Positions 1 through 61,659 of a stretch of DNA of 64,000 nucleotides are shown piece by piece (positions within the stretch are counted from its first letter, which is position 1; each line of letters opens with the position of its first letter). This DNA comes from Moniliella sp. 'wahieum' (lineage: Eukaryota). The notes beneath the pieces were generated by a model. It was not told the origin of the DNA, did not search any database, and saw only the letters and a list, made by a program, of their open reading frames with translations. Position numbers and translations under genes: made by a program. The DNA is taken from contig RSEE01000118.1 of assembly GCA_003971905.1 (NCBI GenBank), positions 1-64,000 of the forward strand, read 5' to 3'.

Positions 1-190
1 CCCACCCTAACCTAATCCTAGGGGAGGGCGAGGGTAGATAGCGAGCTACCCGAAGGGGACAGAGTTATGCCGAGGCGATAGCTCGCTATAAAATCGTCCG
101 CTCTATGCAGCATATGCCCTCCGTTTTTCGATTGGACCACCCGTTCAAAAGTTACACCCCCCCATCCCTAACCCTACCCAACCCGACCCA
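1..190 (+). repeat. Degenerate telomere-like (CCCTAA) motifs at the window start
   Basis: 1-20 reads CCCACCCTAACCTAATCCTA and 166-190 reads CCCTAACCCTACCCAACCCGACCCA. This is not a perfect array. The C-rich + strand fits a left chromosome end, and the adjacent subtelomere-type elements support that reading. Confidence 0.35.
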
Positions 191-450
191 CCCCATCCGT
201 CGTATCTCAGCCGTGCACGGTCCGTTCGACCTCAGATTTCACACACCCAGTCCAGAGGGTGCCCTTCCATACGTCTTCCCCTTCCAATTGCCATTTGTGT
301 GCCGGCGAAGCGCCTAAGCCGAGGAGCGCAACATGCCGAACGTCAGCTCAGTCGTCGGCTGACCGCATGCCCTGCTTGAAGTAACTAGTAAGTCCCCACT
401 ATTGCCTCCTTGCTCATCGCTGACTGTCCTGTGTGAAGATATGATGTGCC

Positions 451-760
451 TTGTGGGATGTACGTGTCCCTATCTACTACGTTGCGAAACCGCAGCCTAG
501 GGAACGGGCTAGGCAATTATGGCGGGGCAAGAAGGTTTGTACGACGACGATGCACCCTCGACAATGCGAGTGGTGCTCCCGCTTCGGGCATGCGGCAGCG
601 GTCTGCCAACAAGTGGCGACCGGGGGCAAGAAGTGCGGCCTGTGCCGCATCCCCGGCACCAACGCGACCAATGCCAAGACCTGATTGATGCGTCGATCAG
701 GGCGATTGCTCGCAAGACAGGGATGCCCCTGAGGAAGTCGAATGCAGCGCAGAAGACGTC
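451..760 (+). pseudogene. Gag/ORF1-like retroelement fragment with two CCHC zinc knuckles
   Basis: CEWCSRFGHAAAVC (565-606) is an exact CX2CX4HX4C. A second knuckle CGLCRIPG-HQRDQC (634-674) is restored by one 1-nt frameshift. The PRQCxxCxxFGH context resembles LINE ORF1 proteins. Confidence 0.65.
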
Positions 761-3369
761 GTGGCGAACGGGTCGGAGCGAATCGGAGTGGCAGCGCCGG
801 CTGCCGCTTTGGATGTGTCCCGGACAAGCGCGCATGGTTCATCTGGAAAGAAAACTTGGTCGTGTTTACTCCTCCCCCTCCGAGTTGGAGGGGGAGCCTT
901 TTGGAGGCGGTCAAGACGCCAGCGAGGCCCGCGACTGGGGCGATCGTGGTCATGGGGCGTCAATTGGGCCGGTACGCCGGTCGACGCGGAGGGCAGCGCT
1001 CAATGCTGTCTTCGTGCGCAGGGCTGCCGTTGCGGAGGCGGCCTTGGTCCCCTTGCCTGGTGGATCCGACGATGGGTTGGAGTCGGGCAAAGAAGGAGGG
1101 GACGGAGTGGGAAGCGAGGGGGGTGGATCGGAGGGCGAGGAGGCCGGCAGCGAGGGCGAGACGGCCAGCTCGGGGCGGGGGCCTGCTCGAGGCGGCCTCT
1201 GGTCCATCCCCCCCCCGTCTGACCCCTGGCGAAGCTCCTTTCCAGGGCAAGGAAAACAGTGCCATGTTCACCAACGTCGCCTGGGGCACCATGCTAGCGG
1301 GGATGCCCTTGTGGAACATCACATACGAGTCAATATCAATAGGCGCCGACCAACGCGACCCTCGATGTTATTGTCTCGCCACTGTCCCTCGCCGGCCTAT
1401 CTACCTGCAACCCGCCATGAAACGGTTTGCCACTGCGTAGGAGCGACTCTGGCATGAAAGTGGTGGCAAGTGGCCGCTGCAGCCCTTTTATGAGTCCCCA
1501 TCGGCCCTCATACCGCCCTGGCCCAGCTCTCGCAACTGAGTGCCGATGACTATGCCACGAATCGGCAGTGGTTGGACGAACGGCTCTCCCCAGCCCTGGC
1601 GACTCTAGACGATCTCAAGAAGGTCGATCAAAACCACAATCTCTGCCAAAGTGGCTGCCCTGGCTCGACTGTATTGGTACGTTCGATGACCCGTCCATCC
1701 GTTGGGATGCTCTTCTTCCTTCCTGGCACCCCGCCGCGGTAACAGGTGCGACGAAAGGGGGTGAAAGGAGAGAAACAGCGCGAGGAGGAAGACTTGCTAA
1801 CCCGCACATCTCTCAGCAGGAGCAGATGGGCACCATCCCAACTTCACAACTGCATAAGATGATGCACTCTCTTCTTTGCCCGATACACTGTTGATCTCAA
1901 TACCTCAACTCCCGTATTGGTCAGCACGCGACGGGGGAGCGGGGACCACAACGTGTTACAACAACTGGAATGATACGGAGAACCCACTGGCGCATCTGGC
2001 GGCCAAGAACGTACGTATACGATGATGATCTTTTCAGGGTCGTGGCGCAGCCTCACTAGAAAAAGAACCGGAGGGGATGATATACTTACTGGATTCGCTT
2101 TGCCTTAACAGTTTGACCAAGCTTCGCAAGATGCCGAGCATTGGACGGCCAAGCTGTTTGTCGCCATGGAAGGCACTGCCCACCCCCCAAAGCAGCAGCT
2201 CCCTTGAATAATAGAGCTACCTTTGGCTGGAACACTATGCATGGCTCAGTGTTGACTAGCACCTCCGTGCTTCATCCCTTGCCGCCTCATCTTCCTTTGC
2301 TCCAGCTACGAATGTTCCTCTTGACTGGGATACCCGGGTGTGGCAAGGCTGCCGTCGGCACTGTTCGCGTAGGCCTGTCTCGGCCCTGCTGCCCCACATT
2401 GTGATGGCGGTACGTTACCCACGTTCTCTTGTACTGTCCAAATTACTGACAACAATAGCAGCTCAAACACCGCACCAAGGAACCTGCCTGGATCAATACC
2501 CCTTTTCCAGGCATACGAGCGTACGCGGTGGCAATGGAGGCACTGCCCCACTTGACGATGGGCAGCTACTGTGGCAAAGAAAGTACCCGCTCCACTCCCC
2601 CTTCGGTGGGGTCTGCTCGGACGATCCTGATTGCCATTTGGCCGGGCAGGGACGTGCGAAGGCGGTGTCGGACCTGCATCCGGGTCTTTAGCGGCCGGGC
2701 GCCGCCCCTACGGGATAGCCAGCTGCTTCTGGGCAACACGGCGGACGCCTTTAACGCCGTCTGCAGCGCTTCTGGCTGCAGTGCGGGTCTGGAGCGGCTG
2801 CTGCTCGTGCGAAAGGGAGAGACTAGGTTGGTAGTTTTTTGGCCGCAACGAGAGATGTTAGGCGACACACAGCGAGCACCCGACGAACAACAACAATCGA
2901 CCGCCTCGGCGCTCGGCCCTCGCGGAGTCCGAGGAGCAGCTCGCAGGGCAACGCCATGGACATGGCCTCGACGCGAAGCAGCTGCAGAGCATGGTGCTTG
3001 GCGGGACAACGGCCAAGGGGGTAGCCCAATGGCTGCTGCGGCGGGGACAACGGGGACGACGGCGGTGGAGGCATGAGTGGGGGACGAGACGCGAGGGGAG
3101 GCAGGATGCAGCACCAAAAGGCGCGCTGCGTGTCGGATGGGCGGGTCGGTAAACAAGGCGCCGCTTGCGTGGTTCGCTGTGCTGCCGAGCGTGGCAAACG
3201 CCTACTGCTGTCCCCAAGAATCCGCAGCGCAGGTTGGTTCGTGGCCAGGTCCGGCCGGTAAGGACGGGCCAACCAAGGAGGGGGTACATGGGGCGCGCAG
3301 CCGCGCGCGGCGAGGGTCCAGTCGCGGGAGTGTGGTGCCGATATGGGTGCGGGTGTCCCCCCGGCACCG

Positions 3370-3920
3370 CGCTGGGCCGCTCTGTTTCGCGGCGAGGGTT
3401 GCGTCGTCGCGTGGTGGCCGCCGCGTCGGTTGGCGCGCCCACGCAGTTGCAATTCATCCACATTGGCTGCGGCCACCACCTACAACCCTAGCACCGCACT
3501 GAATTTCATCTCGTCGCGTCTGCGCGGCTTTTGCTTCTACGCCACCACCAGCACTGTGGGGCCGCTGCTGCAGCTCGCGTCCTAGCTTTTCTCTCGCTGT
3601 ACATCAAGCCGGATGCGTGCTCATGAGAGGTGGCGTCCCTTGCTTCCGCTTCTTGCTGCCCATCGGTATCCATGCAGCGCTCGATACCAGTGCACGGCTG
3701 GGACGAAGGCCTAGGCGATGGTCCGCAGCAGCAGCATGCCGAGCAGGACACGCTGTTCCTTCACCCGCCCACCTCGAGTCGTCGGTACAACGAACCGGGC
3801 CTTGCCTGCAAACGTGAATCGTGTTCTTCCCGAATCGGCCGCTTCTGCTCAAAGGGCAGGCGACACGATGCATAGCGGGATGCAAATCAACCTGAAGATG
3901 GCCCACCCATGGGGTCCTGA
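3370..3920 (-). repeat. Subtelomeric repeat block X, copy 1 (related to ~7215-7610 and ~13270-13640)
   Basis: Shared motifs include GCCGGATGCGTGCTCA (~3608, ~7444, ~13480), TCCACATTG (~3457, ~7300, ~13353) and CGACAYGATGC...ATGCAAATCA (~3861, ~7553, ~13591). Confidence 0.75.
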
Positions 3921-4315
3921 CAACTGGATTCTGCGTGGGGTGGCAACGAGGGCGGCAGCAGGGATAGCCCGCTCCCCTTTTCTGGTCAGCAACATGCCTC
4001 GTGCACACCTCTCAGAGCCACAGCGCCCCAACCAAACCGCAACACCACTCCCCGATGATTCCTTTCCTGGTACTTTCCGCCCTGCCATTTGCGTTGCTTC
4101 CCACCTGGGCCAACGGCGGCGCGCCAGAACTTGACCTCACTCCCCGATGGAGCGCCGACAGCCCGCTTGTATCGGTTTTAGTTGTCTCCCCAAATCGGCC
4201 GTGCTCGGGCTCCCAAGAGCAACCATTTGCTACAAACCGGCTTGGTGGCAACTGGCGTGCCCAGGAGAAGTGGACCATTACTCCTGGCATGGGTATGAGC
4301 TTTACCTTTGCAACG

Positions 4316-5900
4316 CGGGTGCCAACAATGACGACATTCCGGTATTTTTGCCAGCAGCTGCACTGGTAAGGTTGGGTTGGATATGGGGCCCTCCATTGCT
4401 GTGAGGCTGCTCGTCCCACTGCTTCCTCCATCGACGAACGAAGCTGGGCTCTTATCGCTCATGTCCTCCATGACCAAGACGGGTTACGCTTCCATCAAGG
4501 TACACTGCGACGCGGCGTGGCATCTCGTCGTTTGCTTCTGTTGCGTTTACATCCGCAAAAGCCTGTCGCACCGCCGCCTTCCTTTCGACCTTACGGCCAT
4601 GCGGAATTGCTAGACCTGCGAATCCTTTTTACGCTGTCTTGCACGGCGTTGGTACCGCTATACCCAGTATGTGTTTCTCTGGTACGAAAGTACCCATGCC
4701 TTGCTCTACTGTGATATACTGACCAGTGCACTAAACAGGTCCAAATTTATCTTGCCGGAAACGAATAGCCGATGAAAACAAGAAAGAAAGTCATCACCCC
4801 GCCATCTGCAGAGGTATCGCCTGCGCACCAGATTCATCACCCTGCCAGGCAACGACAACTTCGGGTGGTGGGGGGGGGCTGCCAGGTCCTGCCGCCCTAC
4901 GTGGACCGGGGGCGTTTCCAATGAACACAATGGGCACGTTTTGCAAGAGAGCTTGGGGTCTATTATAAAGACGTGGATCGAACCATCGCCAGCGCATACC
5001 GCGACGTTGTGTCGATGAAGGAGACGCGCAACCGGAGATGGCCTCGGCTTGAGGGATGGGGGGCAGCATAGTGGTGTGAGACCAACAGAAGGAGGAGCTG
5101 TGCTACTATGGTCACCCCTCAGGATGTACCTAGTCGCGCTGCACACTTCTCTCGGTGATTACCCATCCAGGATGGGCCCAGTTCGCCAACTTTGTTGGTG
5201 TGGATGCCGATGCTTGTACGTGGTCCATCTTCTTCTGTTGTGGCCCAAGTTGCTGACAGTTCTCATCGATCAAGCGCAGCACTGGAGGCAATAGGATCAG
5301 ACGCGTCATGCAGCCCTCCAACTTTTCACGTCAACGCCCCTCACCCAGTTGTTCAAAGCACCAATTGGGGGTATGCCGATACGGCACTTCCCTGTTGACC
5401 ATCGGCGCTGCACCACCAGCCAAGGCAAGGAATGCTTCACACCCCCGCAGGTTGTGCCTTAATGGAAGGCCCCCAGGTTGCCAACGAGGAGCACGTGCTG
5501 TTCGATGCTGTTCTGTTATGCTGGGCCATTCCGGACGCAGAAAAACGGGTGCTGGGGGCGAGCGGCCACCGCGGGCTGCCATCCGCACAGTCACAGCACT
5601 TCGAAAAAAGATGGGGGTCGGCGGCGACAGGCTTGTCTGCTGCCAGAGAGCGCGTTTGTTGACCGAGCAGGCCGCCCCAGCCGCAGTTCTCTGGCTTCAC
5701 CCGTGCACGAGACCAGGCTCGTCGTGGCCATGCGGGGGGATGATGGGCGCCGCATCTCGAAGCCCTGAAGAGGATGCAGATGGTGTGGTTAGCGTCAGTG
5801 AACCTCGCTCTCGATTGAATATGGATAATTGATGCGACGCTTGACTCGCCGCGCTTGCCGATCGGCTGGGCTGTCGACCACCCCCGAACCGGGGCCGTGT
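4316..5900 (-). pseudogene. Decayed repeat block with putative telomere-linked RecQ helicase remnants, copy A
   Basis: DNA similarity to 12109-13180, 16125-16470 and 7620-8110. Minus-strand peptides in RecQ order: RLILLPPVLR..ENCQQLG (motif Ia-like), VPIVFI (motif III-like), YHSR, and AVYLDG (4491-4508, RecQ Zn-domain-like). Many stops and frameshifts. Confidence 0.4.
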
Positions 5901-7149
5901 CGGAGCGAAATCTCAGCGTCGCATCTTCTGTCTTCCACTCCCTGATCATTCGCCACTCCCTCATCATTCACATTTCCTCCTTCCTCCTCCCCCCACCATC
6001 GGCCCCCCGGTGCTGCTGGGCCAGGTACCCACACGGCGAGCTCCTGGTACGGCTCTTGCGTCATCCCCTTGTGCATGCAAAGATAGCGGCTGTCATCGCG
6101 ACAGCCGTCGTTGGAGCAGCGGCCCAATTAGTCGCTCGAATTGTCTCGTTCTACCTGTCCCGCAACAATCACTGTCCCAGCCAGCGCATGTGTACCGCAG
6201 GTCCTAACCAAGAGAAGCAAGGCGGCGGGTATGCCATCCCCTCAATCTGGTCTGGCTTAATGGCCTCCGGACCATTTTGTCCCAAGTGGATCTAAGCTGT
6301 CTTGCTCGTGCTTGCTCGTGCGTTACGTGCACATCTAAGGCACATCATCTTGGGGAACTCGTTGCTGGCATTGCATCCGGGAGACCCAAACATGTCCATC
6401 TATTCATTGCGACTGCCCGACATATATCGCAGCGATCCCGCCACACAGACGCCTCTGAACCCCAGCGCCCAAGGAACATCATTCGCCATCAAACGGCCTG
6501 GCGACTGCAATGTTGGAGACTGGTTCCGCTATTCTTCCAGTGCGGCGGCGCAGCTTCATGAGGCCCTGGTACTGTTTTCGTGCAGTGTTGTACACCTTGT
6601 CCATGCCCTACAAATGTGGCGCGATGTCGCCGCCGTTCCCAACGATAGGATTAGCTGCTGTCGCTATGGGCGGTATCTCTGAAACTCTTGGTGCGCACAT
6701 GCGTTTCGACGAAGCTTGCTGGCCCAGATTGTGACGATGGTACGTTGCCCCGCTCTATTGTACTCTCTTGTGGTGCGAGTTGCTGACAACCGACGCAGAC
6801 CGAACACAGTGCCAGCAGCAATTGGGACGAACGTGCTTGCGCAAAGAAACTGGCTGTATCAATGCCTCTCAGCCAGAGCATGCGACGCGTACGCGGTGAA
6901 AGTGCAGGCACTGTTCCGCTTGACGCCGCCCTCGCTAGGCAAGTGCGCGCACTGCTCTCCCCTTTGTTGTACGGAAGGCGTGGGTTGGGGTTTGGACAGC
7001 AAGGGACGTGCGAAACCAGTATCCTTCGCGCTCCACCCGCCCGCTTCAGCAGCTGTGCGCCAGACCTGCGTGGCAGCGAGCTGTGTCTGGCCAACACGGC
7101 GGGCACCTTGCCGCCGTCGGCAACGCTCCCTGCTGCAGTGCAAGTCTAC

Positions 7150-8800
7150 AGGGCTGCTACGGCGGCAGCGGACAGCCGAGCAGCCCCGCAAGCAGCAGCA
7201 ATCGACTGCCTCTCCGCGAGACGCGCAGAAAGGGCTGTTCCCGTCGTGGGGTTAATGTTAAACGTGCGTTTGCCGCCGCGCTTGGCGCGCAGAAGCTCCT
7301 CCACATTGGCCGCGGCCACACCGTCCAAGCCCCCCCCCGATTCTGGCCTGGCTGCGTTTAGGACCGCTTTGCCTCTCCACGACCAACCCGCTGGGACTCT
7401 GCTATGGCTCATGTCCTTGCTTCCTTGTCGCGCTGCGCACCAAGCCGGATGCGTGCTCACGGGAGCCCACCCCTCGGCTCCGCTTTTTGCCGTCCATCCT
7501 TGTCGATGCAGTGCCTGAACTGGCATCGAGAGCGCGGTTGCGTTACTGAGCTCGACATGATGCGCAGCGGTGGAATGCAAATCAACCTGGAGGCGACCCA
7601 CCCATGGGATGCCGTATCTTTGATGGTGGTGATTCCTGTACGTGTCCATCTCCTTCTGCTGAAACCCAAGTTGCTGACGTTTCACCTTAGCTGGACGCAG
7701 CACCAGAAGCAATATGTGCTCACACAAGCAACCATTAACTCGTCACGTCCACGTCCCCCCAGCCAGTTGGGCAAGGTGCCAATACAGGGAATATTGGCAA
7801 AGGCAGGGCACGCCTTCCGCCCCTGCAGATGCGCCGGCAGCGAAGGCCTCTACGACTGGCGAAGAGCAGAAGCTGCTCGCTGCTGCTGCGTTGGGGAATG
7901 GGCGCGTAGAACAGGTCCGGGGGGGGGGCGTGGCTGCTCTTCATTACCCTCATTGGACCCCTGAAGAGGATGGAGACGGGGTGGGTAGTGTCAATGAGCC
8001 TCACTCTCGATTGGATACTGATCGTGGATGTGACTGCCTCGCTGGACGCGTTTGTTGATCAGGTGAACTGGCGGCCACCACTTAACCCGAGCTATGCCAA
8101 AGTGAATCCTCCACCTCGTCCCTTTTGTTCGCCTCTCGCAGCAGGGCTGTCGCCCCATTGCGCTTCCCTTTGTTCTCCCCTCCCGAAGTCACGCCCCCCA
8201 CGCCTCCGCTGCCCGCACAGACCGGCCAGGTCCTCACCCAGTATGGCTGGGTGTTCCTTAATATGGAACCCGCATTGATCCCCACCCGAAACTGATCGAA
8301 AATGCGTCGAACTCTCGGCCTGGTCCCAGCAGCAGCCCCAAGCGCTTCCCCAACTCACTCCCGGTGCTGGCCGTAATGACCTCCACGACGCACAAGCCGT
8401 TCCGCACAGCGAACGCATTGCTCACCTCAAGCTTGCTGCCGCCGACCGTCAGCGCCATTCATACTAAAGACGAAAACAATTATCCGCACGACCCTACTCA
8501 ATACCAGGGCCATGATTCGCTCTACTGCTTTACATGTACGGCGACGACCCCATCCACACTTCCTCTGGTATGATATACTGACCGACGCGCTTGTGCAGGC
8601 CGAAACGTACAGGCACGGGAATACAGACGGAGATGGATAATCAAGAATGTCCGAGAACTAGGGCAAGGACATGGATCAAATCAGTGCCCGCTTCTCATTT
8701 ATGTGGAAGATGTTAGTGGTTCCTTTGGAAGCTGCCAAGTCATATGCTTCCAGGCTCCGCCTCGTCTTAGGGGCCACTATCCTACTGCTGCATATTAGAG
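7150..8800 (-). pseudogene. Decayed repeat block (putative RecQ/TLH relic, copy B), duplicated at ~13200-14860
   Basis: Colinear DNA similarity with 13200-14860, e.g. TATGATATACTGACCGACGCGCTTGTGCAGGCCG at ~8569 and ~14578. The minus strand has VLAPCPTGWG (~7757-7785, like the RecQ motif I LPTGGGK), followed by a motif Ia-like ILLLVLRP..RQQLG. Confidence 0.4.
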
Positions 8801-8811
8801 CACTCTCTCCT

Positions 8812-8920
8812 CTCCCAGATGGGAATCAAGTCCAAGGGAGAGTGGGGCAGATTGTGCGCGGCTGGACATTTCGTCGCAGAAGGCGATCGAGGCAAAGGGC
8901 CCGAACAAGAAAAGGTTCCA
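8812..8920 (+). mobile_element. Short CRE-type RT fragment (QMGIKSKG..IVR..QKAIEAKG)
   Basis: CAGATGGGAATCAAGTCCAAGGG aligns with CAGTTGGGCGTCAAGTCCAAGGG (~11250) in the RT. A second copy lies at ~14869-14970. Confidence 0.55.
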
Positions 8921-9329
8921 AAACGCAGCGTACAAAATGTGCAAACGCAAGTGCCAAGAGCCTGGACTTCTGCATTGGGGATTGTATCACCTGACTGATA
9001 CCCTTGCGAGTCAAGAATGTGGACCAAACCACTCGCTACCCCTACCTAAATGGCCTCCTGTTGCCCCACCGATTGTTCATTTTGCGGCTCGTGCTTGCAG
9101 CAACCCCTCCGCCATCTGTTTCGCTCGAGGAGGAAAAACGGATCTGGCACGGACCAAATTCCCCTGGGTAGGTGAGCAGCAATGGCACCAGGCAACTCAT
9201 CCGGGGCGACGATAGGGGCAATGTGGTCGGTCAATGATAGGATCAAGTTGGCATCCCGATGCCCGTCGCTTTGGGCAGATCAGTCTTGCTCTCTCCTCTT
9301 GGCTTACCTCCACAGGCCAACGCAACACC

Positions 9330-9930
9330 ATGGGCAGCGAGACGAACGTATGGGTGGACCAGGTGATCGGCAGCCAACGAGATTGCCCCTCATCCTGGCA
9401 AAAGGAAAAGAAGACGGTTTTGCTCGCCCACCAGTATACGAAGCTGCTGCCTCCTGTGACTATATCGCTCGGCCCCTGGCTGATCGAGAAAGCAGAAGCG
9501 CTCGATCCCAGCTGGAGGGCGGTGGTGCCCTCAAATCCAACGTTCACATTTCCTGGCCACGGGGTCATGACTGGGTTGCGGGACATTCCGGCCACGATAG
9601 TAGAGCCCGAGCCATCAAGAACCCGCAGCGAGTCGGGCGCTCCTACTGTCGCCGCACTAAGATCGCGATGGCAAACGCAGGTGCTCCAAAGAGCCCATCC
9701 ATATCCAACGGCCTAACCCCTTCGTCCTTGGGAGGCAAGACACGCGACCCCTTTCTACGTTGTATTTGCCATCCGCTCGCCGCCGTCCTGAGGCACACGC
9801 GCTGTCTAAGGAGATTAACACCTTGTTCGACATAGAGGCCAAAGCAAAGAACCAACGTACAATCCTTGTGCAACGAGTGCGTAGCTCTGTTCCCTTGGTC
9901 TTCGCTGTGGGTGACTACACCTGTGGTTAC
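9330..9930 (+). mobile_element. 3' part of a CRE-clade non-LTR retrotransposon (post-thumb region plus restriction-like endonuclease), decayed
   Basis: GSQRD..., AEALDPSWRAVVPSNPTFTF (cf. xxWLxVIPxxPxLxL), LRDIPATIVEPEP..LRS, FYVV, and EAKAKNQR...VPLVFAVG (cf. K-x-x-KY...FxPLVFSxGG) occur in RLE order across frameshifts. The CCHC finger is absent. Confidence 0.55.
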
Positions 9931-10439
9931 ACTTCCGCTATGCAAGCTAAGGTATACGGGTCACCCCATCCAAACGCGCTGCCCCTGTAAGTCATGCATT
10001 CAGGTGCTTTGCTTGATTTCTCTGCCGTCCATGTTGCAAACCCACAGCCTAGGAGCCGGACTAGGTATTTGCGGTCCTTGGGCTGCCCAAGAATGCAAGA
10101 CGAGCAAGATGTGTATTCACAGAACGTTGTGGATCGTGTGCGCTACTTTGGCTACGAATGTGTCCAAGGCACTCTTGAATGGAGATGGAGCGGGCAATAC
10201 AAAACTTGTTCCTTCTCCACGTTTCCACCGCCACCTTCCCCGCCTTGCCCGCCGTCTGGAGGTCGTGGCGAATCATGTGGCCCCCTTCCGTGCTGCGCGT
10301 GAACTAGGCCGGTGGGAACTAGCGTAACACCAACAGCTCAGGCGCGCACGCGCTACGCCAGGCAGTCGGTGCCGGCTGTGCCCAGCCCAATCAGGCAGCC
10401 GAAGCGGACCACCGGCAGTTCCGATTCGGATCCATTCGA

Positions 10440-12115
10440 GTGGTGGAGTGCGCTGTGCCCTCGCCGCCGGGCAGCACAATGGTGCGGCGTCGGTTCAAAG
10501 AGGCGGCCGGTCGATTGGGAAGAGCGTATTTAGATCATCCCGACGATGACGCCGTGTTCAACCTGCTTGCCCTGCCGAAGGCGGGCTTGCGGGGGGGCTC
10601 TTCGGCCGACGTTTGTGCCACCCTCAAGGCGTATCCGGAGGTGGCTTGGCCGCCAGCTATGGAGAAGGGCTCTGCAGAGCGCCAGCGTTCGATGATTTGA
10701 CCGTGCACATCGCCAGGTCAAAGAGGGCATGTGGGGGCGTGCGGCGCGTACGCTGCGTCCCCAGGATGCGGCGGTGGGGTTTGGTCCGGAAACGGTCGAG
10801 GCCGCGTGCGAAGTACCCTTCAGGCCCGAACAACCCGCTGGCTGGTTTGGTGGTTCGGCAAATGTCGGAGCGGGCCCGCCTGGTTTAACAGGCGACACCG
10901 CAGCGGCAGACGCCGGTGAGCCCCCAATGGTTTTGGAGTTGGCTGATAAGGACATCTATCGCGCGGCAAGCAGCTTCTCCCGGGACGTGGGGGGAGGCGC
11001 GGGCGGATAGTCGGTACCTTTTCTCCAGCTGGCTCTAAAGCAAGATGACTTTAGAGCGGCTCTCCAAGTCGTGGGTGTGCCATGTTTCATGGGACGTGCC
11101 CGGGTGCTCAGCTGTTGTGCACCAGTAGGTTGACGGCGCTTGCGAAACCTGACGGTAGAGTGAGACCGATCGCCTGTGGTGAGTTACTTTACCGCGTAAT
11201 GGCCAAGGCACTTCTTCATTTGGATGTGGTTACTCCTCTGCTCCACTCGCAGTTGGGCGTCAAGTCCAAGGGCGGGTGGAGCCGACTGTGCGGCTCATGG
11301 ATCGTTTGGTGAGCGGGCAAGAGAGGGGCCCGGCTTGGGCCAAGTTCAACTATGTGCTGTCGTTGGACTTTAAAAATGCGTTCAAGTCGATCGACCGGGC
11401 GCGGTGGCCCAAGCGGTGAGTGACTATTCGCCCGAGCTCCTTTCTTTCTTTCGTTGGGCTTATGGGAAGCACACCCAGTTGGTGTTGAGTGGTCCAGGCG
11501 GCTTTGGAACCCTCCTGAGCCAGCAGGGAGTGAGACAGGGCAACCCCTTTGGGCCCTTCTTCTCTGTCGGCATCCGCAGTATGCTGGAGCAGGCGCAGCG
11601 CACGTTGGGCGACGATGGGCTGGTGGTGTCCTATTTGGATGACACTTGTGTATTGTCGCGCAATGCCAATGCGCTGCAGCTGGTCTCGCGTGTTATGGCG
11701 CAGAGCAAGACGGGGCTGGAACTCAACCTGAGCAAGACGAAGACTGTCTCGACGCAGAGGTTGCGTCTGGAGGGCGGCACCTTCCTCGGCTCGTGCATGG
11801 GTCCCAGGACAGCTCGGCTCGCTTTTCTGCAGGCAAAGGTGGAGGCTCAGGCGGCGCTTTACCCCACCTTGCAAGGGATGCCGCTGAAGGACCGCTTGCT
11901 CTTGTTGCGCGTGGCTCTGCAGCAGAACCTGTGGCACCTGCTCCACTCGATGCGGACAGACGACCTGGCGGACCAGCTCCACCAGATTGACGAGCAGCTC
12001 TGGCGCGAGGTGAAGGCAATCGGGGGAGCGGATCCGAGCAAGGAGGACGGTCAGAAATGGCACAGGGTTCTTTTCTTCTTGCCAGCCCGTATGGGTGGCT
12101 TAGGCGTTCGGGCGC
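10440..12115 (+). mobile_element. CRE-clade (Cnl1/MoTeR/SLACS-like) non-LTR retrotransposon reverse transcriptase, pseudogenised and 3'-truncated
   Basis: Motifs: FNLLALPKAGL..AYPEVAWP, KYPSGPNNP, SRLTALAKPDGRVRPIACGELLYR, QLGVKSKGG(VEP), LSLDFKNAF, GVRQGNPFGP, SYLDD, GLELNLSKT, FLGSCMG and the thumb LPARMGGLG. In-frame TAG at 11008-11010 where GGW is expected, plus several frameshifts. Confidence 0.9.
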
Positions 12116-13180
12116 CAACAGTGGTGGCATTCCGGTTGGTTCTATCCACAGTTACTGGTGAAGTCCGATTGGATATGTTGCCTTCCATTGCAGTGAGACT
12201 GCTCGTACCCCTGATGAGACTGGGCTCACATCGCTCCTGTCCCCCAGGGTGGCGCCGTGGCCAAGATGGAATCGACGCTGTGATCAAGGCACACCTTGAC
12301 GCGATGTGGCATATCGTCGGTCCGCTTCTGTTACATCCGGCACATCTCTCGCGCCCCCACCTGCCTTGCCGCCCTACCACCACGCCGGATTGCCAGACGT
12401 GCCAATCCATTTTCACACTATCATGCTCGATGTACCGACTATCTGTTCATCAGGTACGAAGTCACCCAAGCCTTGCCGTGGTGTAATGTACTGGCCAGTG
12501 CGTTAGACAGGTGCGAATATGCTGGACGGTGGAGAATAGCCGATGGAAAAGCAAGTGATCGCCCCGCTCTCTCCAGAGGTATCGCCTCCGCATCAGGTTA
12601 AACACCCCGCCAGGCAACGACAACCTTGGATGGTGGCGGCCCGTCCCAACGTTAACCGGAGGCGCTGCGCGCTGCAGATGAAAACAACCGACAAGCACTG
12701 CAAGAACCTGAGGTGCAAGATAAAGGCATGGATCGAGTCATTGCCAGCTTCTGCCGCAATGTGGTGCAGGAATCAGGGAACGCGCATCTACAGATCGCCT
12801 CGCTCAAGCCCGCGGAATGAGGGTCAGACATGAGAGTGTACGGCCAACAGGATGAAAAGCAGGTGCCACTAGTGGTTGTCCTTCGTGAAGTGCTCAGCCG
12901 CGGTGCCCGCCTCTCCTTGGGCTTACCTACCGACCCATGATGGGCCCAGCGCTCCCACTATGTTGGTGGAGATACCTGTACGTTGTTCATATCCTTCTGC
13001 GGTGGCCCAGATTGCTGACATTTCGCATTGTCCAGACGCAGTCGGAGCGCCCGCATTCGTGTAGCCCTTGCCACATCAACGTCCCTCAGCCGCCGAGCAA
13101 AGCGCCCAAGGAGAGAGTACCTCCGCTGCGCCCTTTGGCCATAGGCAGCACCATTGGCAAAGGCAAGGCACGCTTCGCCC
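12109..13180 (-). pseudogene. Decayed repeat block (putative RecQ/TLH relic, copy C) abutting the RT thumb
   Basis: Colinear with 4316-5430. Minus-strand LSNALASTLHHGK (~12471-12510, YHAG-like motif IVa), IVGTSS (~12423-12442, IVATSA-like motif V), then C..(CLDHSVD)..GGQERCEP (Zn-domain-like). Confidence 0.4.
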
Positions 13181-13199
13181 TCACCCGTGGCTGCAACAA

Positions 13200-16100
13200 C
13201 CGCGCCAGATTGCAGCGGCGCAAGCAAACCGAGCAGCCTCGCGAGCAAACGCAACCGACTGCCTCTGCACGAGACGCGCAGAAAGGGCTGCTCCCGCCGC
13301 GGGGTTGACGTTTAACGTGCGTTTGCCGCCGTGGTTGGCGTGCAGAAGTTCCTCCACATTGCCGTGGCCACCCCGTCCAAGCCCCCCTCCCCGATTCTAG
13401 CCTGGCTGCGTTTGGGACCGCTTTGCCTCTCCACCAGCAACACGCTGGGGTTCTATACGTCTCATGTCCTTGCTGTCTAGCCGGATGCGTGCTCACGGGG
13501 AGGCACGCCCCTCACCTCCGCTTTTTGCTGCCCATCATTGTCGGTGCAGTACCCGAATTGGCCTTGAGAGCGCGGCTGCGTTACCGAGGTCGACACGATG
13601 CGCAGTGGTGGAATGCAAATCAGGCGGCCCACCATGGAGTACCGCAACTTCGATGGTGGTGATGCCTGTACGTGTCCACCCTTGTGCTGGAACGCTGACT
13701 TTTCCATTAGCTGGACTCAACTTCAGAGGCATTGTACGTGCACTCAAGCAGCCCTTAACTCGTCGCGTCCACGTTCCCCCAGCCAGTTGCCCCAGGCGCC
13801 AATGCAGGGAATATTGGCAAAGGCAGGGCACGCTTCCGGCTCCCTGCGGATGCGCCAGCAGGGAAGGCCTCTACGGCTGGCGAAGAGCAGATCCTGCTCG
13901 ATGCTGCTATGTTGTGGGACGGGCGCATAGAGCAGGTCCAGGGTACGTGCGGCTGCTCTTCATCCCCCTCGCTGGACCCCTGAAGAGGATGGAGACCGGG
14001 TTGATGAGCCTCACTCTCGATTGGATACTAGCCATGGATGTGACTGTCTCAGTGGACGCGCTTTTGGTCAGGTGGACTGGCGACCACCACCTAACCCGAG
14101 CTGTGCCAAAGTGAATCCTCCACCTCGCCTCTTTTGCTCGCCACTCGCGGCAGGGCTGTGGCCTGATGCGCCTCCCTTTGTTCTCCCTTCCCCAACTCGC
14201 GGCCCTCACGCCTCCGCTGCCCCGCACATACCGGCCAGCTCCCCCCTTCCCGGAGTGGGGGTGTCCTACAACATGGAAACCGCATTGGTCCCCACCCAAG
14301 ACTTATCGAATGAGTCGAACGTCTGGCCTGGTTCCAGCAGCAGGCCCAAGCTCTTCTTAGACACACTCCCGTCGCAGACCGCAAAGACTCTACGATGCTT
14401 AATCCCTTTCACACGGCGAACGCTTTTCTCACCTCAAGCTTGTTGCCACCGACCGTCAGCGCCGTTCATACTAAAGCCAAAAACGATCATCCGCACGGCC
14501 CTACTCAATACCGGGGTCATGATTCTCTCTACTGGTTTTACATGTACGACGACGATCCCCACCCACACTTCCTCCAGTATGATATACTGACCGACGCGCT
14601 TGTGCAGGCCGGAACGTACAGGCACGGGTATGCAGACGGAGATGGGTGATCAAGAGTGTCCGAGCACTACGGCAAGGACATTGGTCAAACCAGTGCCCGC
14701 TTTTCATTTACGTGGGAAATGTTAGTGGTTCGGGATCGCTGTACACTTGGCCATCACTCGACATGATGACGCTGTGGAAGCTGCCCAGTCATATGCTTCC
14801 CAAGCTCCGTCTCGCCTTGGAGCCAATATCCTTCTACTGCATATCCGAGTACCCTCCCCCTCTACTCCCAGATGGGAATCAAGTCCAAGGGAGAGTGGGG
14901 CAGATTGTGCGGGCTGGGCACTTCGTTACAGAAGGCAATCGAGGCGAAGGGCCTGAGTGAACAAGAAAAGGTTCCAATGTGTAACGTGGATCGACTTCAA
15001 AACACAGCGTGCAAGAGTGCAAGCGCAACGTGCCAAGATATAAGGATCACCTCATTCCAAACGCACTACCACGGTATGACATGGATCAAGTGGCTTTTGC
15101 TTGATTTCCCTGCCGATCACGTTGCAAAACCACAGCCTAGGTGCCGAACTAGGCATTCGCGGTGCTTTGGCTGCCCTAGAATCCAAGACGAGCAAGATGT
15201 GTATCCGCAGAACGTTCTGGACTGCGTGCGCTCCTTTGGCTACGAATGTGTCCAAGGCACTCTTGAATGGAGATGGGGCGGGAAATGGAAAACGTATTCC
15301 CTTCTCCACCTTTCACCGCCACCTTCCGCCTTGCCCGCTGCCTGGAAGTCATGGCAAAATGTGGCTCCTGCCGTGATGCGCGTGAACGAGGTCGATGAGA
15401 ACGAACGTAGCACCAACAGCTCAGGCGCGCACGCGCTACGCCATAGTCGGTGTCGGTGCGGCGGTCTCAGTCCAATCTGGCTTCCGGCGGCCGAAATTCA
15501 GATCCATTCAAGTGGTGGAGTGCACTGCGCCCTCGCCGCCGGGTAGCACGATGGTGCCGCGTCCATTCAAACACACCGCGGGTCGCTTAGGAATTGCCTA
15601 CCTAGATCATCTCGACGGCCACGATGTGTTTAACTTGCTTGTTCAGTTCTCAAAGGGGGCTTGCAGGGAGGCTCCTCGCTTGGTGTTTTCACCTCCCTCA
15701 GGGCTGATCCGGAGGTGACCTGACCTCCAGCTATGGGGAAGGACTCTGCAGATCGTGCGCATTCCGATTGTTTCGCCCGTGCGCATCTCCAGGTCAAACA
15801 GGCATGCTAGGGCGGGCGGTTCGTACGCTGCGTCCCCAGGACGCGACGGTGGGGTTGCGGCCCAGGCGGCTTTGTACATTCTTGCACGGGTTGCCGCTGC
15901 AGGACCGCCTGCTTTGTTGCGGGTCGCTCTGCAGCCAAACTTCGGCATCCGCTCGGTTCAATGAGGACGGAGGATCTAGCGGACCAGCTCCACCAGATTG
16001 ACGAGCAGCTCTGGCGCGAGGTGAAGGCAATCCGGGGGACGGATCCGAGGGATGAGGACGGTCAAAAGTGGGACAGGGATCTTTTCTCCCTGCCAGCCCG

Positions 16101-16470
16101 TATAGGTGGCTTAGATTTCGGATATCAACAGTGGTGGCATTCCCGTTAGTTCTATCCGCAGCTACTGGCAAGGTGGGGTAGGGTATGGTGCCTTCCACTG
16201 CAGTGGGACTGCTTGTACCCATGATGAGACTGGGCTCATATCGTTCCTGTCCCACGTGGTGTGTGCGGCCAAGACATGATTGGCGCTGCCACCAAGGCAC
16301 ACCGTGAAGCGGGGTGTGTGGCATCTTTTCGGTCCGTTTTTGTTGCGTTTACATCCGACACGCCTATCTCGCCCCCGCCCTCATTCTTCCCTTACTGTCA
16401 CGCCGAGGTGCCAGGCGTGCAAATGCCTTTTCACACTGTCATGCACGATGTACCCACTATTCGATCCTCC
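13200..16470. repeat. Tandem segmental duplicate of ~7150-12440 with internal deletions
   Basis: 13200-15040 matches 7150-8960; 15090-15860 matches 10005-10780; 15860-16470 matches 11840-12440. Confidence 0.85.
15420..16125 (+). mobile_element. Internally deleted copy of the CRE element (N-terminal region joined to thumb, RT core missing)
   Basis: 15420-15858 is homologous to 10338-10780 and is joined directly to sequence homologous to ~11840-12110 (GCGGACCAGCTCCACCAGATTGACGAGCAGCTCTGGCGCGAGGTGAAGGCAATC is identical in both). About 1.06 kb is deleted. Confidence 0.8.
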
Positions 16471-16929
16471 ATCAAGTCGCCGGCGGCGGGCAATGAATGC
16501 ATGACCACCACACCCTACAACGATACGGCTGGCTTCTCAGACCCACGCGCTTGACCTGGACAGACCCCATGCGATGCTGGTACTACCACCGTGCTGACCG
16601 CGCGCGTGCGCCTTCCATTTGTGTTCTTGTATAGGCTCGCTTCTCCTGTCTCCTCTCCACGGCCGACGCCGCTTCGACCTGCCTCCACTCGGTACCAGTG
16701 CATGGCTCGGCCTGGCCCATCGCATGGGCTTCCATTTTTAAATGAGGCGGAGATTGTGAGACGGCGGTGGTTCATGATGATGCATATGCATGATGCATGA
16801 TGCACTAAATTTGAAAGTGGAATGTTGCCTGCCAAGTAAATCCCCCGTGTGTTGCTGCCCCTCGGGCTGCCTTCTTGTCCCCCTCCACCCCATCCCGCGC
16901 CTCGCCTCGCCCATGCCCAGAGGCTGGCG

Positions 16930-18188
16930 ATGAGTTCCTTCCAGGTCGGAGGCCACGCCAATGTCGTAATCCTGCTCCGGATCACCAGCCCCCGCCCTCT
17001 GCCCCACCTCCATTGCGCCTCTGCCCGCCAGTGGCGACCCCGCCGAGCCGGCCGAACAAGTGGCCGCCGTCTGGGCCGGCCCGCATTGCCAGCGCCGCCT
17101 GCTGAAGCGGACGACCTGGGGCGAGGTTTCGTTCTACGCTGCGTGTCGCAGTCTCGCAGGGGGAGATGCGCCGGCGGCGGAGCATGCGGCCGAGCTCCAG
17201 CTGCCGCAGGCGGCTGTGCCCCCTGCCACGCGCGCCGCGATCGCTGCCTTTGTCGAGCTGCAGCCTTGCTTCTATGGTGCCTATCCTCTCTTTCCCTCCC
17301 CCGCCTATCCTTCTCCCCAAGACGCGGATGTTCGAAATGCCATCCGCCTTTTAGCGCGCACTTCCATGGCCGCCTCTGACCCTGAGATGCACAGCTGGAG
17401 CATGGTCTTGAGCAACGTGGTGGCCGGCATGCAATGGCCCCACACCATCGACATTAAACTGGGCCACATTCTCTTTGACGACCGACCTGGCCGGACCAAG
17501 GAGGAGAAGATCAAGCGGATGCAAGCTGCTTCCGCCAGCACCACGTCTTCAACTCATGGGGTTCGTCTGACGGGCTTCCAGCATTGGCTCACGCCTCCGC
17601 CTCAGCCTGGACCAGATGGCCGGCCAAAGTCGCAAGACCGCCAGGAACGTGTTCTTCATTCGGTCGGCAAGAGCTTTGGCAAAAAAGTGGACCATGCGGG
17701 ATTTGCCGTGGGACTGCGAATGTTCCTTGGCTGCGCGTCGGCAGAGGACGAGGCTCACTTTAGCTCGGTTACCCAGTCTGGCTCCACGGGGGGCGCCTGG
17801 CCTTCTGACCGCATCCCTGGTTGGATTATGCTTTGCTCTTGGAGCGATCCATTCTGCCTTCGCTGAACCAGATGGTACGGGTGGTATCGGGGGTTGAAAT
17901 ACGGTTTCGCGGATCCAGTTACTTCTTGCCTACGAGAGCGACCCCGTCCTCCTCCACCGTTGGGCCACGGATCAGCTGCAATGGCCGCGGCGCATGTGGA
18001 CCGGCCCTCCCATCTCGACCTGCCGCCTGATTGACTTTGCCCACTCTTACTTTGTCCTAGGCCACGGGCCCGACCAAGGCCTCCTCGCCGGCCTCCGCAC
18101 CCTCATCACCACCCTCGATACCTTTCTGGCCCACCTACGCACTTCAGGAGCCGACTTGCCCCCTCCGTCAACTGACCCAGGGCGCTGA
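16930..18188 (+). CDS. Inositol polyphosphate kinase (IPK/IPMK, Arg82/Ipk2-like); indel-disrupted in this assembly
   Basis: FQVGGH N-terminus, GEVSFY, PHTIDIKLG (PxxxDxKxG), STTSSTHGVRLTG, RFRGSS(LL) and RLIDFAH motifs. Confidence 0.85.
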
Positions 18189-19018
18189 TATCGCTCAGTA
18201 CCCCTTGGCACCACTCCATCCCCGTTTGCAAACCTGAGGGCGCTCGATGCGCTTGGGCCCTCGTCTTGGTGCCCGCACAATCACGTGTCACGACCGCACT
18301 AATGACACCTGTGCCCTCCACGCCGTTAGATCTCGCATAGCCCAATTCTTGCCCTCCGATTGAGCTGTGGATATGGGTTCTATACCTTGCTCAGACAATG
18401 AGGCTCGTGCATGATGATGCCAGGCCTGCTTGAGCCCCTCGCCCTCTCCCTCTCCCAATCAGTGAACCGAATGTCCTTGTCAACCCGGGAGGCTACAAGC
18501 GCAAGATCCGCGCTCTGGCGCACCAGCGCCAGCATTGAGTCCATAGTGATCAGAACCTTGTTGTGCTGGGCCAGAGTGGTCCGGTCCTAGCAAGGTGTCC
18601 CTATCTCGTGCTCGACCTCTGACCAGGGCAATCACCATGCTTCACCGAGGACCCAAAGCGGGACGATAAGTGCGCAGCGCAGGCTGCGCTCCGTACGCCC
18701 TCAAGTGGAGCGTGCGACTCTTTCGATCCACAAGCACAACTTCTATCCCATCCTAGTGAGGTGGCTTTGTTGCTACCTATTGTGCCAGGTCGCTCTCAGA
18801 TGGATGGAAAGGCCTGCCATACCGGGACCAGCTGATGGCATTCTTTTTTGTCACGATGTCGTTTTCGTCCAGTCCATCTTTTTCAGTAACAACATGGGTT
18901 TGTTCGCGGAACAGGGAAGCTCGGTGCGTTCCATCAGGAAAAGAAACCGCAACGGGTGGAATGGCAAGGGGAGGCGGTCAGCCGCAGCAAAAGGTTCAGC
19001 AAGGGCAAGGAAGGCGGT

Positions 19019-56924: not shown

Positions 56925-59727
56925 TTAAGCAAGCGTAGCCGCCGCATGCGACAGCACCACCTTGCCTGTCTCCTTGATCTTGGCCAGAAATGTGACCTGC
57001 TTGCCCTCCTTCCACGCTGGGTCACCACCGTCTCGCCCGGGAAGACGGTCGAGGCAAAGCGGACCTTGACCGAAACAATGGGCCCATAAGTATCCACAAT
57101 CGCCTTGGTCGCCGGCAAAGGTGCAGAGGCCATGCAGGATCGGGCGGGAGAAGCCGCCGACCTTGGCAAAGTCGGGATCAATGTGCAGTGGGTTAAAGTC
57201 CCGCTCACCGGTACAACAGTACAGCGCTGCCTGGTCCACGTTCGTCTTCTGTTCCACCACCGCATCCGGCGCCGCGCAGGGGCGTGTTGACCCGCGCTTG
57301 CCTCGCCCCGGTCCTTGCCCGTCTTCTTGCCGCCAAACCCGCCCGCGCCGCGGATAAACACAGTAGACTGGTTCTCAAACAACAAGTCGCCCGATTCCTT
57401 TCATACGTCTTGGTCACGTCGTCACCGCGGCCGCCTTGCCCTTGTCCAGCACCTCGAGCAGCGCCGGCTTGATGACCAATGTACCGGCCACGGGGATCTC
57501 CTTGTAAATCTTCAGGTACTGTTCCCCGTGCAGCAACATCATTGGGCTAAAGTTGGGCAGCCAGTCGAGCGGTGGAAGAGGAGGCGCTAAACTGAGGAAT
57601 GACGCCAAACGTGGGCAAGGCCTGGAAGTCATCCGCTTGCTCAAACGTATACTTCCGCTCGGTCGCCTTGGCGCCCACGCCAAGGTTGTAGAGAATGACA
57701 TCCTTCTCGTCGTACGTGTACTCGGACGACTCGGTCGGTTGCTTCTTCGCCTCCCGGACCAACTCTGGGTCTTCAGGATCAATCGACGACGCCTCGCCCG
57801 CCTCCTCTACTTCCTCCACCTCGTCCCCTCACCATCCAAGTTGGCCATAATGTCGCCCAGTGCTCCTGGGTATCGGCGGGCCAATTGGCACGCTCGGGGT
57901 CAAAGTCAAAGATGCGCGTGATGCGCGCAGCCACCTTCTCCGGGGTCAGGGGCGTTTGGTGACTAAAGGCAACCCCACCAGCACGCTCCCAGCGTACCGC
58001 CGCCACCCAACCGCCCGACACCTCAACAGACCCTTGGTCACGTCTTCATTGTCCTCCGATGCCAGGTAAAACCACCAGCGGCGCAACATAGTCTGGCTTG
58101 AACGCATCCACCCTCTCCTGTGGCCAAACGGTCGCCGTCATAGCCGTCCCAGCGTTCGGGGCAATCGTGTTGGCCAAAATGTTGTACTTGGCGCCTTCAA
58201 TGGATAGGGTTTGAGTCAAGCCCAAAATGGCCGCCTTAGCCGTCGAGTAGTTGGCTTGACCAAAGTTGCCGTACAGCCCAACAGAAGAGGTGGTGTTAAT
58301 GATGCGGCCGTACTTTTGCTGGAGGAAGATGGGCCAGGCCGCCTTGCAGATGGAGTAGGTGCCGCGCAAGTGCACTGCAAGCACTGCCTTCCACTCGTCG
58401 TCCGTCATCGAGGCAAAGGACTTGTCGCGTAGAATACCTGCATTGTTGATGACTACATGCAGTCCGCCAAACGCCTTGACTGCCGCCTCGACAATCTTGG
58501 TGCCTTCCTCCACCGAGCCAATCGCCGGTGCGGCCTTCCCCCGGCCTTTTGAATCGCCTCTACTACCTCGGCCACATTCTTTTCGGAAAGTCATTGACCA
58601 CCACATTGGCCCCCGCCTTGCCAAACAAGAGCGCATACGCCTTGCCTAGTCCAGCGCCAGCGCCCGTGACGAGCACCGTCTTGCCATCAAATCGCACCTC
58701 GCCCCCCTGTTCATTGGCAGGGGCCTTCTTGGAGCGCTCAAGATGCTCCAGATGGTTGGCATCCGTAATGGCGGTCGGGTACTCCACGTCGCCATCAAAG
58801 TCAAGAATGTCATCAATCTTGGCCTTAATGGCGGCAGGGGTAAAGGTCGCGTCGGCGCGGAACACGTGGCCCTTGGTACGTTGGCGGCGCAGGCCCGCAT
58901 TGAAGCCTGCGCCCGACTCGATCAGCTGCCCTGTCACCTCCGAGTTGGCTGCACTGACCAGGTAGGCCACCAGTGGCGCCACATACTCCGGCTGCAGTTT
59001 CTCCAGAATCTCCGGCGGCATCACCGTTGCCGTCATCTGTGACGCGGCAATGGGAGCAATCGTGTTGACGAGAATGTTGTACTTGGCGCCCTCGATCGAC
59101 AGGGTGCGCGAAAAGCCGTAGAGTCCCAACTTGGCGGCACTGTAGTTGGCCTGGCCAAAGTTGCCGTAGATACCAGCGGCAGAAGAGATGTTGATGATGC
59201 GACCGTACTGGAGCAAGAACGAGGACACAAGTCAGAGACGGCAACAGGTGATCGAAGGAGAGGAAGGAAAACGAGAAGCAACAAACCTTTTGCTTGCGCA
59301 TGTAGGGCCAGGCAGCATGCGCACAGGTGTAGGATCCGGTCACATGCACGGCAATGACCGCATCAAACTCAGCGTCAGTCATCGACTTGAACGACTTGTC
59401 GCGCAGAATGCCGGCATTGTTGATGACAATGTCAATGCGGCCCCATGTGTCGACGGCCTGCTTACCAGCTTGTCGCCCTCAATGTTGGAGTTGTAGTTTG
59501 GCAATCGCTTCGCCACCGGCAGCCTTGATCTGGGCCACAACCACGTCGGCGGCCTTCTTGCTCTTGTCTTCGACAGCGGGGCCGAGGTCGTTGACGACGA
59601 CCTTGGCGCCGCGTGGCTGGCCAAGGACGGCGTAGGCCTTGCCGATGCCGTTGCCGGCGCCGGATGATGGAGCCATCTCGTTCTTGAAGGAGATGGAGCC
59701 GTTCTCGAGCTCGGGGAAGTGGGACAT
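56925..59727 (-). CDS. FOX2: Peroxisomal multifunctional beta-oxidation enzyme MFE-2 (two SDR domains plus hydratase 2), intron 59208-59286
   Basis: [32 protein letters not shown] (x2), [50 protein letters not shown] and [28 protein letters not shown]. Confidence 0.95.
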
Positions 59728-61547: not shown

Positions 61548-61651
61548 GGTGGTGTGTTGTGCGCAACAGAGTCAGAGGAAGCGAGGTGGAAAAGCTAGGG
61601 GAGAAAGCAATGAGGACTTTTCTATACGCACAGCCAAAGGGGGGTGTTTGG

Positions 61652-61659
61652 TATATATA
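61652..61659 (-). promoter_or_regulatory. TATA-like box upstream of hydrolase paralog 1
   Basis: TATATATA ~105 bp upstream of the ATG at 61547. Confidence 0.3.

Follow-up and report, generated by a model that had tools for sequence, protein, structure and literature searches.

A decayed mosaic of CRE-lineage retrotransposons at a chromosome end of Moniliella sp. 'wahieum' and its probable origin in terminal ribosomal DNA

The first 16.5 kb of contig RSEE01000118.1 (C118; 181,970 nt) of the fungus Moniliella sp. 'wahieum' raises the question of how a chromosome end comes to hold a long row of decayed retrotransposon pieces that all face the same way. The DNA analyzed (the window, G000:C118:1-64000) is 64,000 nt long and begins at the contig start. 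The original prediction took the pieces for CRE retrotransposons that target telomere repeats, intermingled with minus-strand relics of RecQ-type telomere-linked helicases (TLH). The answer favored here is another one: the 16 kb are probably what is left, after decay, of retrotransposon arrays that had built up in ribosomal DNA (rDNA) at chromosome ends, from a telomere-type CRE lineage retargeted to rDNA. Taken alone, the decayed mosaic is ordinary.

A young sister family in the 28S rRNA gene

Young family A, a 4-kb element that is present at other ends of the genome and served as query for the window, occupies one site of the 28S rRNA gene, where 225 nt of 28S are duplicated, forms head-to-tail arrays and has a tail like the upstream 28S sequence. 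Its copies are 98.5-100% identical to one another and their differences are almost all insertions or deletions. At eight of 11 young 3' ends (C2, C33, C158 three times, C69, C30 and C24) the element is joined to 28S at ACCACA^GGGATAAC, a count that omits older copies at 71-78%, which are without the tail. This site, in the peptidyl-transferase loop, differs from the R2 site in 28S. 28S sequence from the site onward flanks the element on both sides over 224-225 nt, 222 of them identical, and constitutes a target site duplication; on C158, where three young units stand head to tail, the spacer between units is the duplicated 28S piece. The 3'-terminal bases of the element resemble 28S just upstream of the insertion site. 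The other three young 3' ends lie outside rDNA, at GGGA(T/C). Two of these off-target sites, on C63 and C1, have a visible upstream flank; they resemble the 28S site (at C63, 11 consecutive bases are in common) and have duplications of their own, about 50-65 nt long at C63 and about 12 nt at C1.

The decayed block that fills the window's beginning also keeps company with rDNA. At nine of the 11 ends that share it, the block is preceded by rDNA spacer and 5S sequence, mostly with the 3' end of 28S, and about 10 fetched contigs start inside an rDNA unit that is read away from the end. Telomere repeats adjoin none of the 11 young 3' ends, and no CCCTAA is found at the internal junctions of the window. 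Targeting of telomere repeats, as first proposed, is therefore not supported for these elements, which are tied to 28S.

Older insertions and their 28S stubs

The features of the window up to its first recognizable host gene are the following.

4-272, plus strand: telomere-adjacent terminal unit, ~200-270 nt, with single CCCTAA motifs at 5 and 166; caps many contig ends
464-532, plus strand: stub of 28S (large subunit, LSU) rRNA directly 5' of an old CRE copy; 93% identity to the genome's own LSU, blastn E 2e-18, nhmmer E 1e-12
560-1065, plus strand: 5' part of an old CRE element, family B, with two decayed zinc knuckles
1425-2185, strand not assigned: repeat of no recognized family; 72% copies are also interstitial on C55 and C7
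2387-4382, strand not assigned: decayed blocks of no recognized family, paralogous to 6717-7540 and 13295-13624
4697-5239, plus strand: fragment of an older CRE reverse transcriptase (family C), with E 1.4e-9 for the consensus and E 3.4e-6 for the window copy
5270-8760, strand not assigned: decayed blocks of no recognized family; 7155-8760 is the first half of a duplicated unit
8761-9929, plus strand: internally deleted 3' half of a CRE unit, with the end of the reverse transcriptase and the restriction-like endonuclease region
10020-10075, plus strand: decayed 28S stub where two CRE units meet head to tail; E 0.005 for the window copy, and a score of 30 for the consensus (null maximum 15)
10267-12107, plus strand: best-preserved CRE reverse-transcriptase region, family B; RVT_1 E 8e-6; frameshifts and stop codons interrupt it, and its DNA is 66% identical to that of the young family
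12475-13000, plus strand: fragment of an older CRE reverse transcriptase (family C), paralogous to 4697-5239; consensus E 1.1e-12
13211-16469, plus strand: second, deleted copy of 7155-12451 (78-80%), with CRE pieces at 14661-15019, 15354-15850 and 15854-16126
15105-15164, plus strand: decayed 28S stub, duplicate of 10020-10075; E 3.5e-4
16970-17863, plus strand: inositol polyphosphate kinase frame, the first recognizable host gene and boundary of the repeat domain; Pfam E 1.9e-15

Three CRE 5' ends of the old window family are thus preceded by stubs of 28S, drawn from a second site and not from the one used by the young family, and one of these stubs occupies a head-to-tail junction. On one side of the stub at 10020 is the 3' half of a unit and on the other the 5' end of the following unit, which is the layout seen on C158, and a consensus of 23 copies of it matches LSU at 40 of 50 nt. 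Its start coincides with the point at which several rDNA units of the genome are cut short (C33, C136, C21, C64 and others); this point is presumably the insect R1 site. (An Rfam scan of 1-17,000 gives no match, the 28S stubs being too short.)

The innermost rDNA unit has its 28S cut short near the same position at ten ends: C33 (L014/L015), C136 (L016/L017), C21 (L083), C64 (L078), C70 (L126), C199 (L132), C47 (L130), C10 (L128/L127), C37 (L131) and C135 (L134). In most of these, what comes after the cut 28S is a spacer of variant type that includes a degenerate copy of 5S (68-83%).

Lineage of the elements

The single young-copy query finds 10 pieces in the window, all on the plus strand, and none in the reversed control. 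A profile search finds 13, again all on the plus strand, which at E<1e-3 cover 6,164 of 16,500 nt (~37%); applied to 25 ends, the same profile places 131 of 133 pieces on the plus strand. (The profile is partly built from the window's own relatives and leans towards them.) The uniform orientation noted originally is accordingly real, and so is the assignment to CRE, which similarity of the reverse transcriptase (RT) and a quick tree uphold.

The RT of the young element shares 36-42% identity with proteins of Tilletia, Cryptococcus (including C. neoformans), Kwoniella and Filobasidium and from metagenomes; judging by organism and similarity, the matched C. neoformans proteins are probably Cnl1. 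In the quick tree, young family A and window family B form one branch (SH-aLRT, an approximate likelihood-ratio support, 100) inside a group of Cryptococcus, Kwoniella, Filobasidium and telomere-flanked elements (support 92), with the Tilletia element as sister; the tree covers neither a named MoTeR or CRE1 reference nor the dispersed CRE-like families of the genome. With the profile, R2 proteins of solved structure reach no better than E 6e-19 to 2e-13, compared with 1e-66 to 1e-55 for fungal CRE relatives, and the elements are thus not of the R2 clade. By these sequence comparisons they belong to the fungal Cnl1/MoTeR (CRE) lineage.

The C-terminus of a young copy reads C-x2-C-x7-H-x3-C-x9-RHE ... 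E ... RTD ... D, that is, a CCHC motif and a restriction-like endonuclease (RLE), and fits the CCHC-endonuclease pattern quoted in the excerpted text of PMC12857005; 8926-9929 of the window is a decayed homologue of this region. Two zinc knuckles lie N-terminally. The open reading frame is broken in every assembled copy seen, probably through indel errors. Family C (4697-5239 and 12475-13000) is a third, older family. CRE-like families dispersed in the genome include those at C2:979494, C73:212331 and C5:1233665, some with open frames of more than 900 amino acids. Upstream of one metagenomic CRE relative (L147:166-216) is a 51-nt piece resembling 5S rRNA (80%, E 1e-7).

The chromosome end and its turnover

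Location at a chromosome end, as originally proposed, is borne out. Of 54 fetched ends (a set selected from search matches, and not a random sample), 23 have the terminal unit (4-272) within their first 700 nt, and in 12 of those 23 it directly follows at least two CCCTAA repeats; in the window itself CCCTAA is present as single motifs only. (CCCTAA)4 is found at 11 loci, of which eight are termini of contigs of known length, two lie on contigs without a fetched length and one is interstitial. The raw number of (CCCTAA)4 is no evidence by itself because a reversed control pattern is commoner genome-wide (58 against 14); the terminal positions alone count. The genome also has two matches to the TERT RNA-binding domain, on C1 and C25. 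Since the terminal unit adjoins (CCCTAA)n at other ends and TERT matches are present, the window begins at a genuine chromosome end, and the genome retains telomerase-type repeats. No recognizable host gene precedes the kinase frame at 16970-17863, in keeping with the original prediction.

Several side observations concern this region. Part of the terminal repeat, a 40-nt sub-unit (window 37-88), is tandemly amplified, up to ~15 times, at the starts of C121, C154, C96 and C129 (L027, L028, L029, L037). The interstitial (CCCTAA)4 is at C75:199297 (L121:4298-4321), in the middle of a 354-kb contig. The kinase region (window 16719-18203) is duplicated at 94% within the end mosaic of C14 (C14:24419-25907). 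Farther in, window 58012-59480 and 60429-64000 hold two direct duplications of 64-70% identity, unrelated to the end mosaic.

Ends of this kind have been re-capped at various points. On C158, C222, C30 and C24 telomere repeats adjoin young elements that have lost their 5' part, with three junction points among them; on C129 and C112 the terminal unit meets 28S only a few bases from the young insertion site; and the shared decayed block is capped at different depths, which correspond to window positions 273 (the window itself), 345 (C19R), 674 (C24), 2584 (C29) and 5467 (C45R). The breaks may be the work of the element's endonuclease. This can only be inferred, because in Magnaporthe terminal rDNA truncation and formation of new telomeres also occur without MoTeR (PMC7367193, in the part drawn on here). 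The capping of C129 and C112 at the 28S site and the look-alike off-target sites bear only indirectly on cleavage of the rRNA site by the endonuclease.

Duplication within the window and sharing between ends

The original prediction had 7150-12440 duplicated as 13200-16470. The repeat is real: in self-comparison 7155-8921 matches 13211-14977 (80% identity), 9946-10781 matches 15032-15856 (79%) and 11838-12451 matches 15853-16469 (78%). The second copy is not a full one, since it lacks counterparts of about 8922-9945 and 10782-11837, two large deletions. Older paralogues of the unit, which had been placed at 3370-5900, extend over 2387-6044 at 62-70% identity. All 15 self-matches inside 1-16.5 kb are direct. 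Decay shows no RIP-like (repeat-induced point mutation) or CpG bias.

Most of the mosaic is shared between ends. An old segmental duplication takes in positions 273-15,000, and 11 of the 25 other ends examined align with it collinearly for 4-14 kb, with 79-90% identity. For three probes, 38 of 40, 55 of 56 and 44 of 45 of the genome matches listed (those among the best 40 candidates scored) lie no more than 35 kb from a contig end, a zone expected to make up at most 22% of the genome, and they are spread over 22-26 distinct ends; concentration at contig ends, on which the prediction depended, is thereby confirmed. In the shared block of C14 (L024:5580-7172), C12 (L022) and C69 (L075), an inverted 1.6-kb internal piece of the young element replaces window 1299-1958.

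Could the tandem structure be an artifact of assembly? The assembly is a noisy long-read one with identical contig starts. Nevertheless misassembly is scarcely credible, because the same block and junction are present at other ends (the junction between the two tandem copies is spanned on C3, C12R, C19R and C129, at 85-86% identity) and because divergence is far above assembly noise: the two copies are 20% apart, with large deletions, as against ~1.5% between young element copies.

The helicase question

No RecQ or TLH signal rises above null in the window, its copies or consensus sequences with any of the profiles used. Queries were the genome's own RecQs, its own TLH loci (by tblastn and blastn), 150 TLH-like proteins, a 16-sequence canonical RecQ profile and 24 whole-length TLH slices, with frameshift-aware alignment; decayed TLH controls score 68-556 by the same method. 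Helicase motifs I-VI are not found in order on the minus strand, where window maxima with the 150-protein profile are 36-43 against a null of 47-53. The 24 slices, which span the TLH domain and the N-terminal C2H2/OrsD part, give a minus-strand maximum of 59 in the window against 83 in the reversed control, and 69 (from a low-complexity slice) against 57 for the consensus, with a positive control of up to 556. Pfam detects no helicase in minus-strand read-throughs of 6550-8800 and 12100-14800 or in six frames of 1300-4300 (other stretches were scanned with Pfam as 21 chosen open frames). Consensus building restores no long frame, a search with the C75 helicase finds no homologue among longer proteins, and the genome's own TLH loci do not match the window. 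Candidates for RecQ motif II picked by eye at about 5250, 7680 and 13010 were rejected because none of them ever scored. Helicase-like minus-strand readings at ~5250 and ~13010, the two best, are at the edge of plus-strand CRE fragments where the opposite strand continues the RT; the proposed minus-strand helicase relics are thus not confirmed.

TLH genes do exist in this genome, as the search for them shows: at the starts of C75, C112 and C87, and as decayed copies at C37, C35 and C64. They lie next to telomeres, point outward and match DEAD, Helicase_C and OrsD. Three divergent families can be told apart beside telomeres or rDNA: C75 (L066:2542-8547), C112 (L065), C87 (L067) and C37 (L131). 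The middle region of TLH has, by eye, a motif order reminiscent of a tyrosine recombinase. For TERT (L063, L064), the Sgs1-like gene (L051/L052) and the RecQ1-like gene (L054/L057), two copies exist on separate contigs, in some cases diverged, possibly in a hybrid or as two haplotypes.

Origin of the mosaic

If the elements grew in terminal rDNA, the sequence of events might have been as follows. The element's endonuclease would nick its 28S site, and target-primed reverse transcription would insert a copy and duplicate the target; re-insertion into the duplicated target would then generate one-way arrays. All copies would come to lie on the plus strand, since rDNA at chromosome ends is read in the direction away from the telomere. 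At the inner margin of the rDNA, units would escape homogenization and would decay, and the decayed units would be copied between ends by ectopic recombination. Later breaks would be healed by telomere repeats and the terminal unit, the break at the window's end having removed the rDNA. The structure would be a by-product, and no host function is claimed for it.

The model in which telomere-targeted CRE and opposite-strand RecQ/TLH relics were amplified as a composite is largely refuted, and we consider it quite improbable. It can point to the TLH genes adjoining telomeres, to collinearity of 3710-4382 and 5894-6432 with DNA that lies, at other ends, 1.7 kb and 0.4 kb away from pieces of TLH (the former match is ~1.7 kb downstream of the decayed TLH gene at the C37 end and itself has no helicase similarity), and to relatives elsewhere that are telomere-flanked. 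The ~60% of 1-16.5 kb that matches no recognized element or gene could, moreover, be helicase decayed beyond detection. Set against this are the failure of every helicase query to exceed null by a method that scores decayed controls clearly, and the lack of telomere repeats at internal junctions. What survives of the composite is recombination between ends and truncated CRE, without the helicase.

A more serious alternative, though still an unlikely one, makes the rDNA link secondary: a CRE of loose specificity, or one that seeks telomeres, inserted into terminal rDNA on one or two occasions, all copying was by recombination between rDNA-bearing ends, and the 28S stubs are captured flanks. The following observations, some of which favor this alternative directly, weigh against an origin in rDNA arrays. 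Eight rDNA junctions are not eight events: C2 and C33 are identical over 9 kb and C30 and C24R share one truncation point, so that these pairs may be the same DNA placed twice; further identical contig starts (C135/C136/C39R/C47R) likewise make junction counts overstate independent events; and a single insertion, multiplied by recombination of rDNA, could account for all young rDNA copies. Chromosome interiors hold scattered CRE-like families of greater distance (30-50% protein identity), and the reading frame of every young copy is interrupted in this assembly, which is rich in indels. No old family B copy among those examined has 28S on both sides, the stub at 464 is preceded by non-rDNA spacer, the other two window stubs are weak singly and duplicates of each other, and no 28S link is seen for family C. 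The unrecognized ~60% belongs here too, as does a bias in the count of metagenomic relatives with LSU or small-subunit (SSU) flanks (none of 80), since short-read contigs break at rDNA. The three young 3' ends outside rDNA and the Magnaporthe precedent for rDNA truncation and telomere healing without MoTeR (PMC7367193, same part) also suit a secondary link. It is opposed by the likeness of off-target sites to the 28S site, by the resemblance of the element's tail to the 28S upstream flank, by the attachment of two families to two different 28S sites and by the exactly duplicated 28S piece that separates the tandem units on C158. Because 13 of the 80 metagenomic relatives carry (CCCTAA)n and none has LSU or SSU flanks, telomere targeting is suggested to be the older state.

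Relation to known systems

MoTeR1 of Magnaporthe, FoTeR of Fusarium oxysporum and Cnl1 of Cryptococcus, as described in the parts of PMC7367193, PMC12857005 and PMC12810828 used here, are alike in RT lineage and RLE, in head-to-tail arrays at ends, in telomere-capped 5'-truncated copies and in the presence of TLH at ends of the same genome. In contrast with these, the 3' ends of the Moniliella elements abut 28S, interstitial telomere tracts are absent and the spacer between units is a piece of 28S. Occurrence of CRE-lineage elements beside TLH genes at fungal ends is not new, since it is already reported for FoTeR in Fusarium (PMC12857005, excerpted text). Counterparts of the TLH RecQ helicases of Magnaporthe, Fusarium, Ustilago and S. 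pombe lie beside telomeres and face outward in this genome, and are not detectable in window 1-16.5 kb.

R2, R8, R9 and other rDNA-specific RLE elements of animals share insertion into 28S. The long target duplication can be likened to that of R9, which is exceptionally long according to the portion of PMC3636483 relied on. Unlike R2, the present elements are not of the R2 clade, use a different 28S site and have a fungal host. S. pombe HAATI survivors, in the available portion of PMC5959237, are similar in having rDNA blocks at many ends, spread by recombination; they differ in that Moniliella has TERT fragments and CCCTAA repeats and represents a natural state with a resident retrotransposon.

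To our knowledge, rDNA-specific LINEs (long interspersed nuclear elements) are known mainly from animals. A literature search whose scope excluded subscription journals, Repbase reports and supplements found no fungal rDNA-specific LINE, nor a CRE family in 28S. For fungi, the table of a 2024 review lists only a spacer LTR (long terminal repeat) element, Ty1 and microsporidian MITEs (miniature inverted-repeat transposable elements), and no LINE inside an rRNA gene (PMC10946416).

A fuller account, for and against which the case is evenly balanced, is that a basidiomycete element of the Cnl1/MoTeR lineage switched target from telomere repeats to 28S, at two successive sites and with a ~225-nt duplication, that its endonuclease breaks rDNA-bearing ends and drives their turnover, and that the window is a fossil of the older site. 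If this is true, the CRE lineage would provide a natural case of change of target from telomere to rDNA, offering for comparison both relatives that target telomeres and a pair of 28S sites within a single genome. It would be relevant to the way in which restriction-like endonucleases come to change their specificity and to the use of rDNA-inserting proteins as tools, and it would connect breakage of rDNA with the turnover of chromosome ends.

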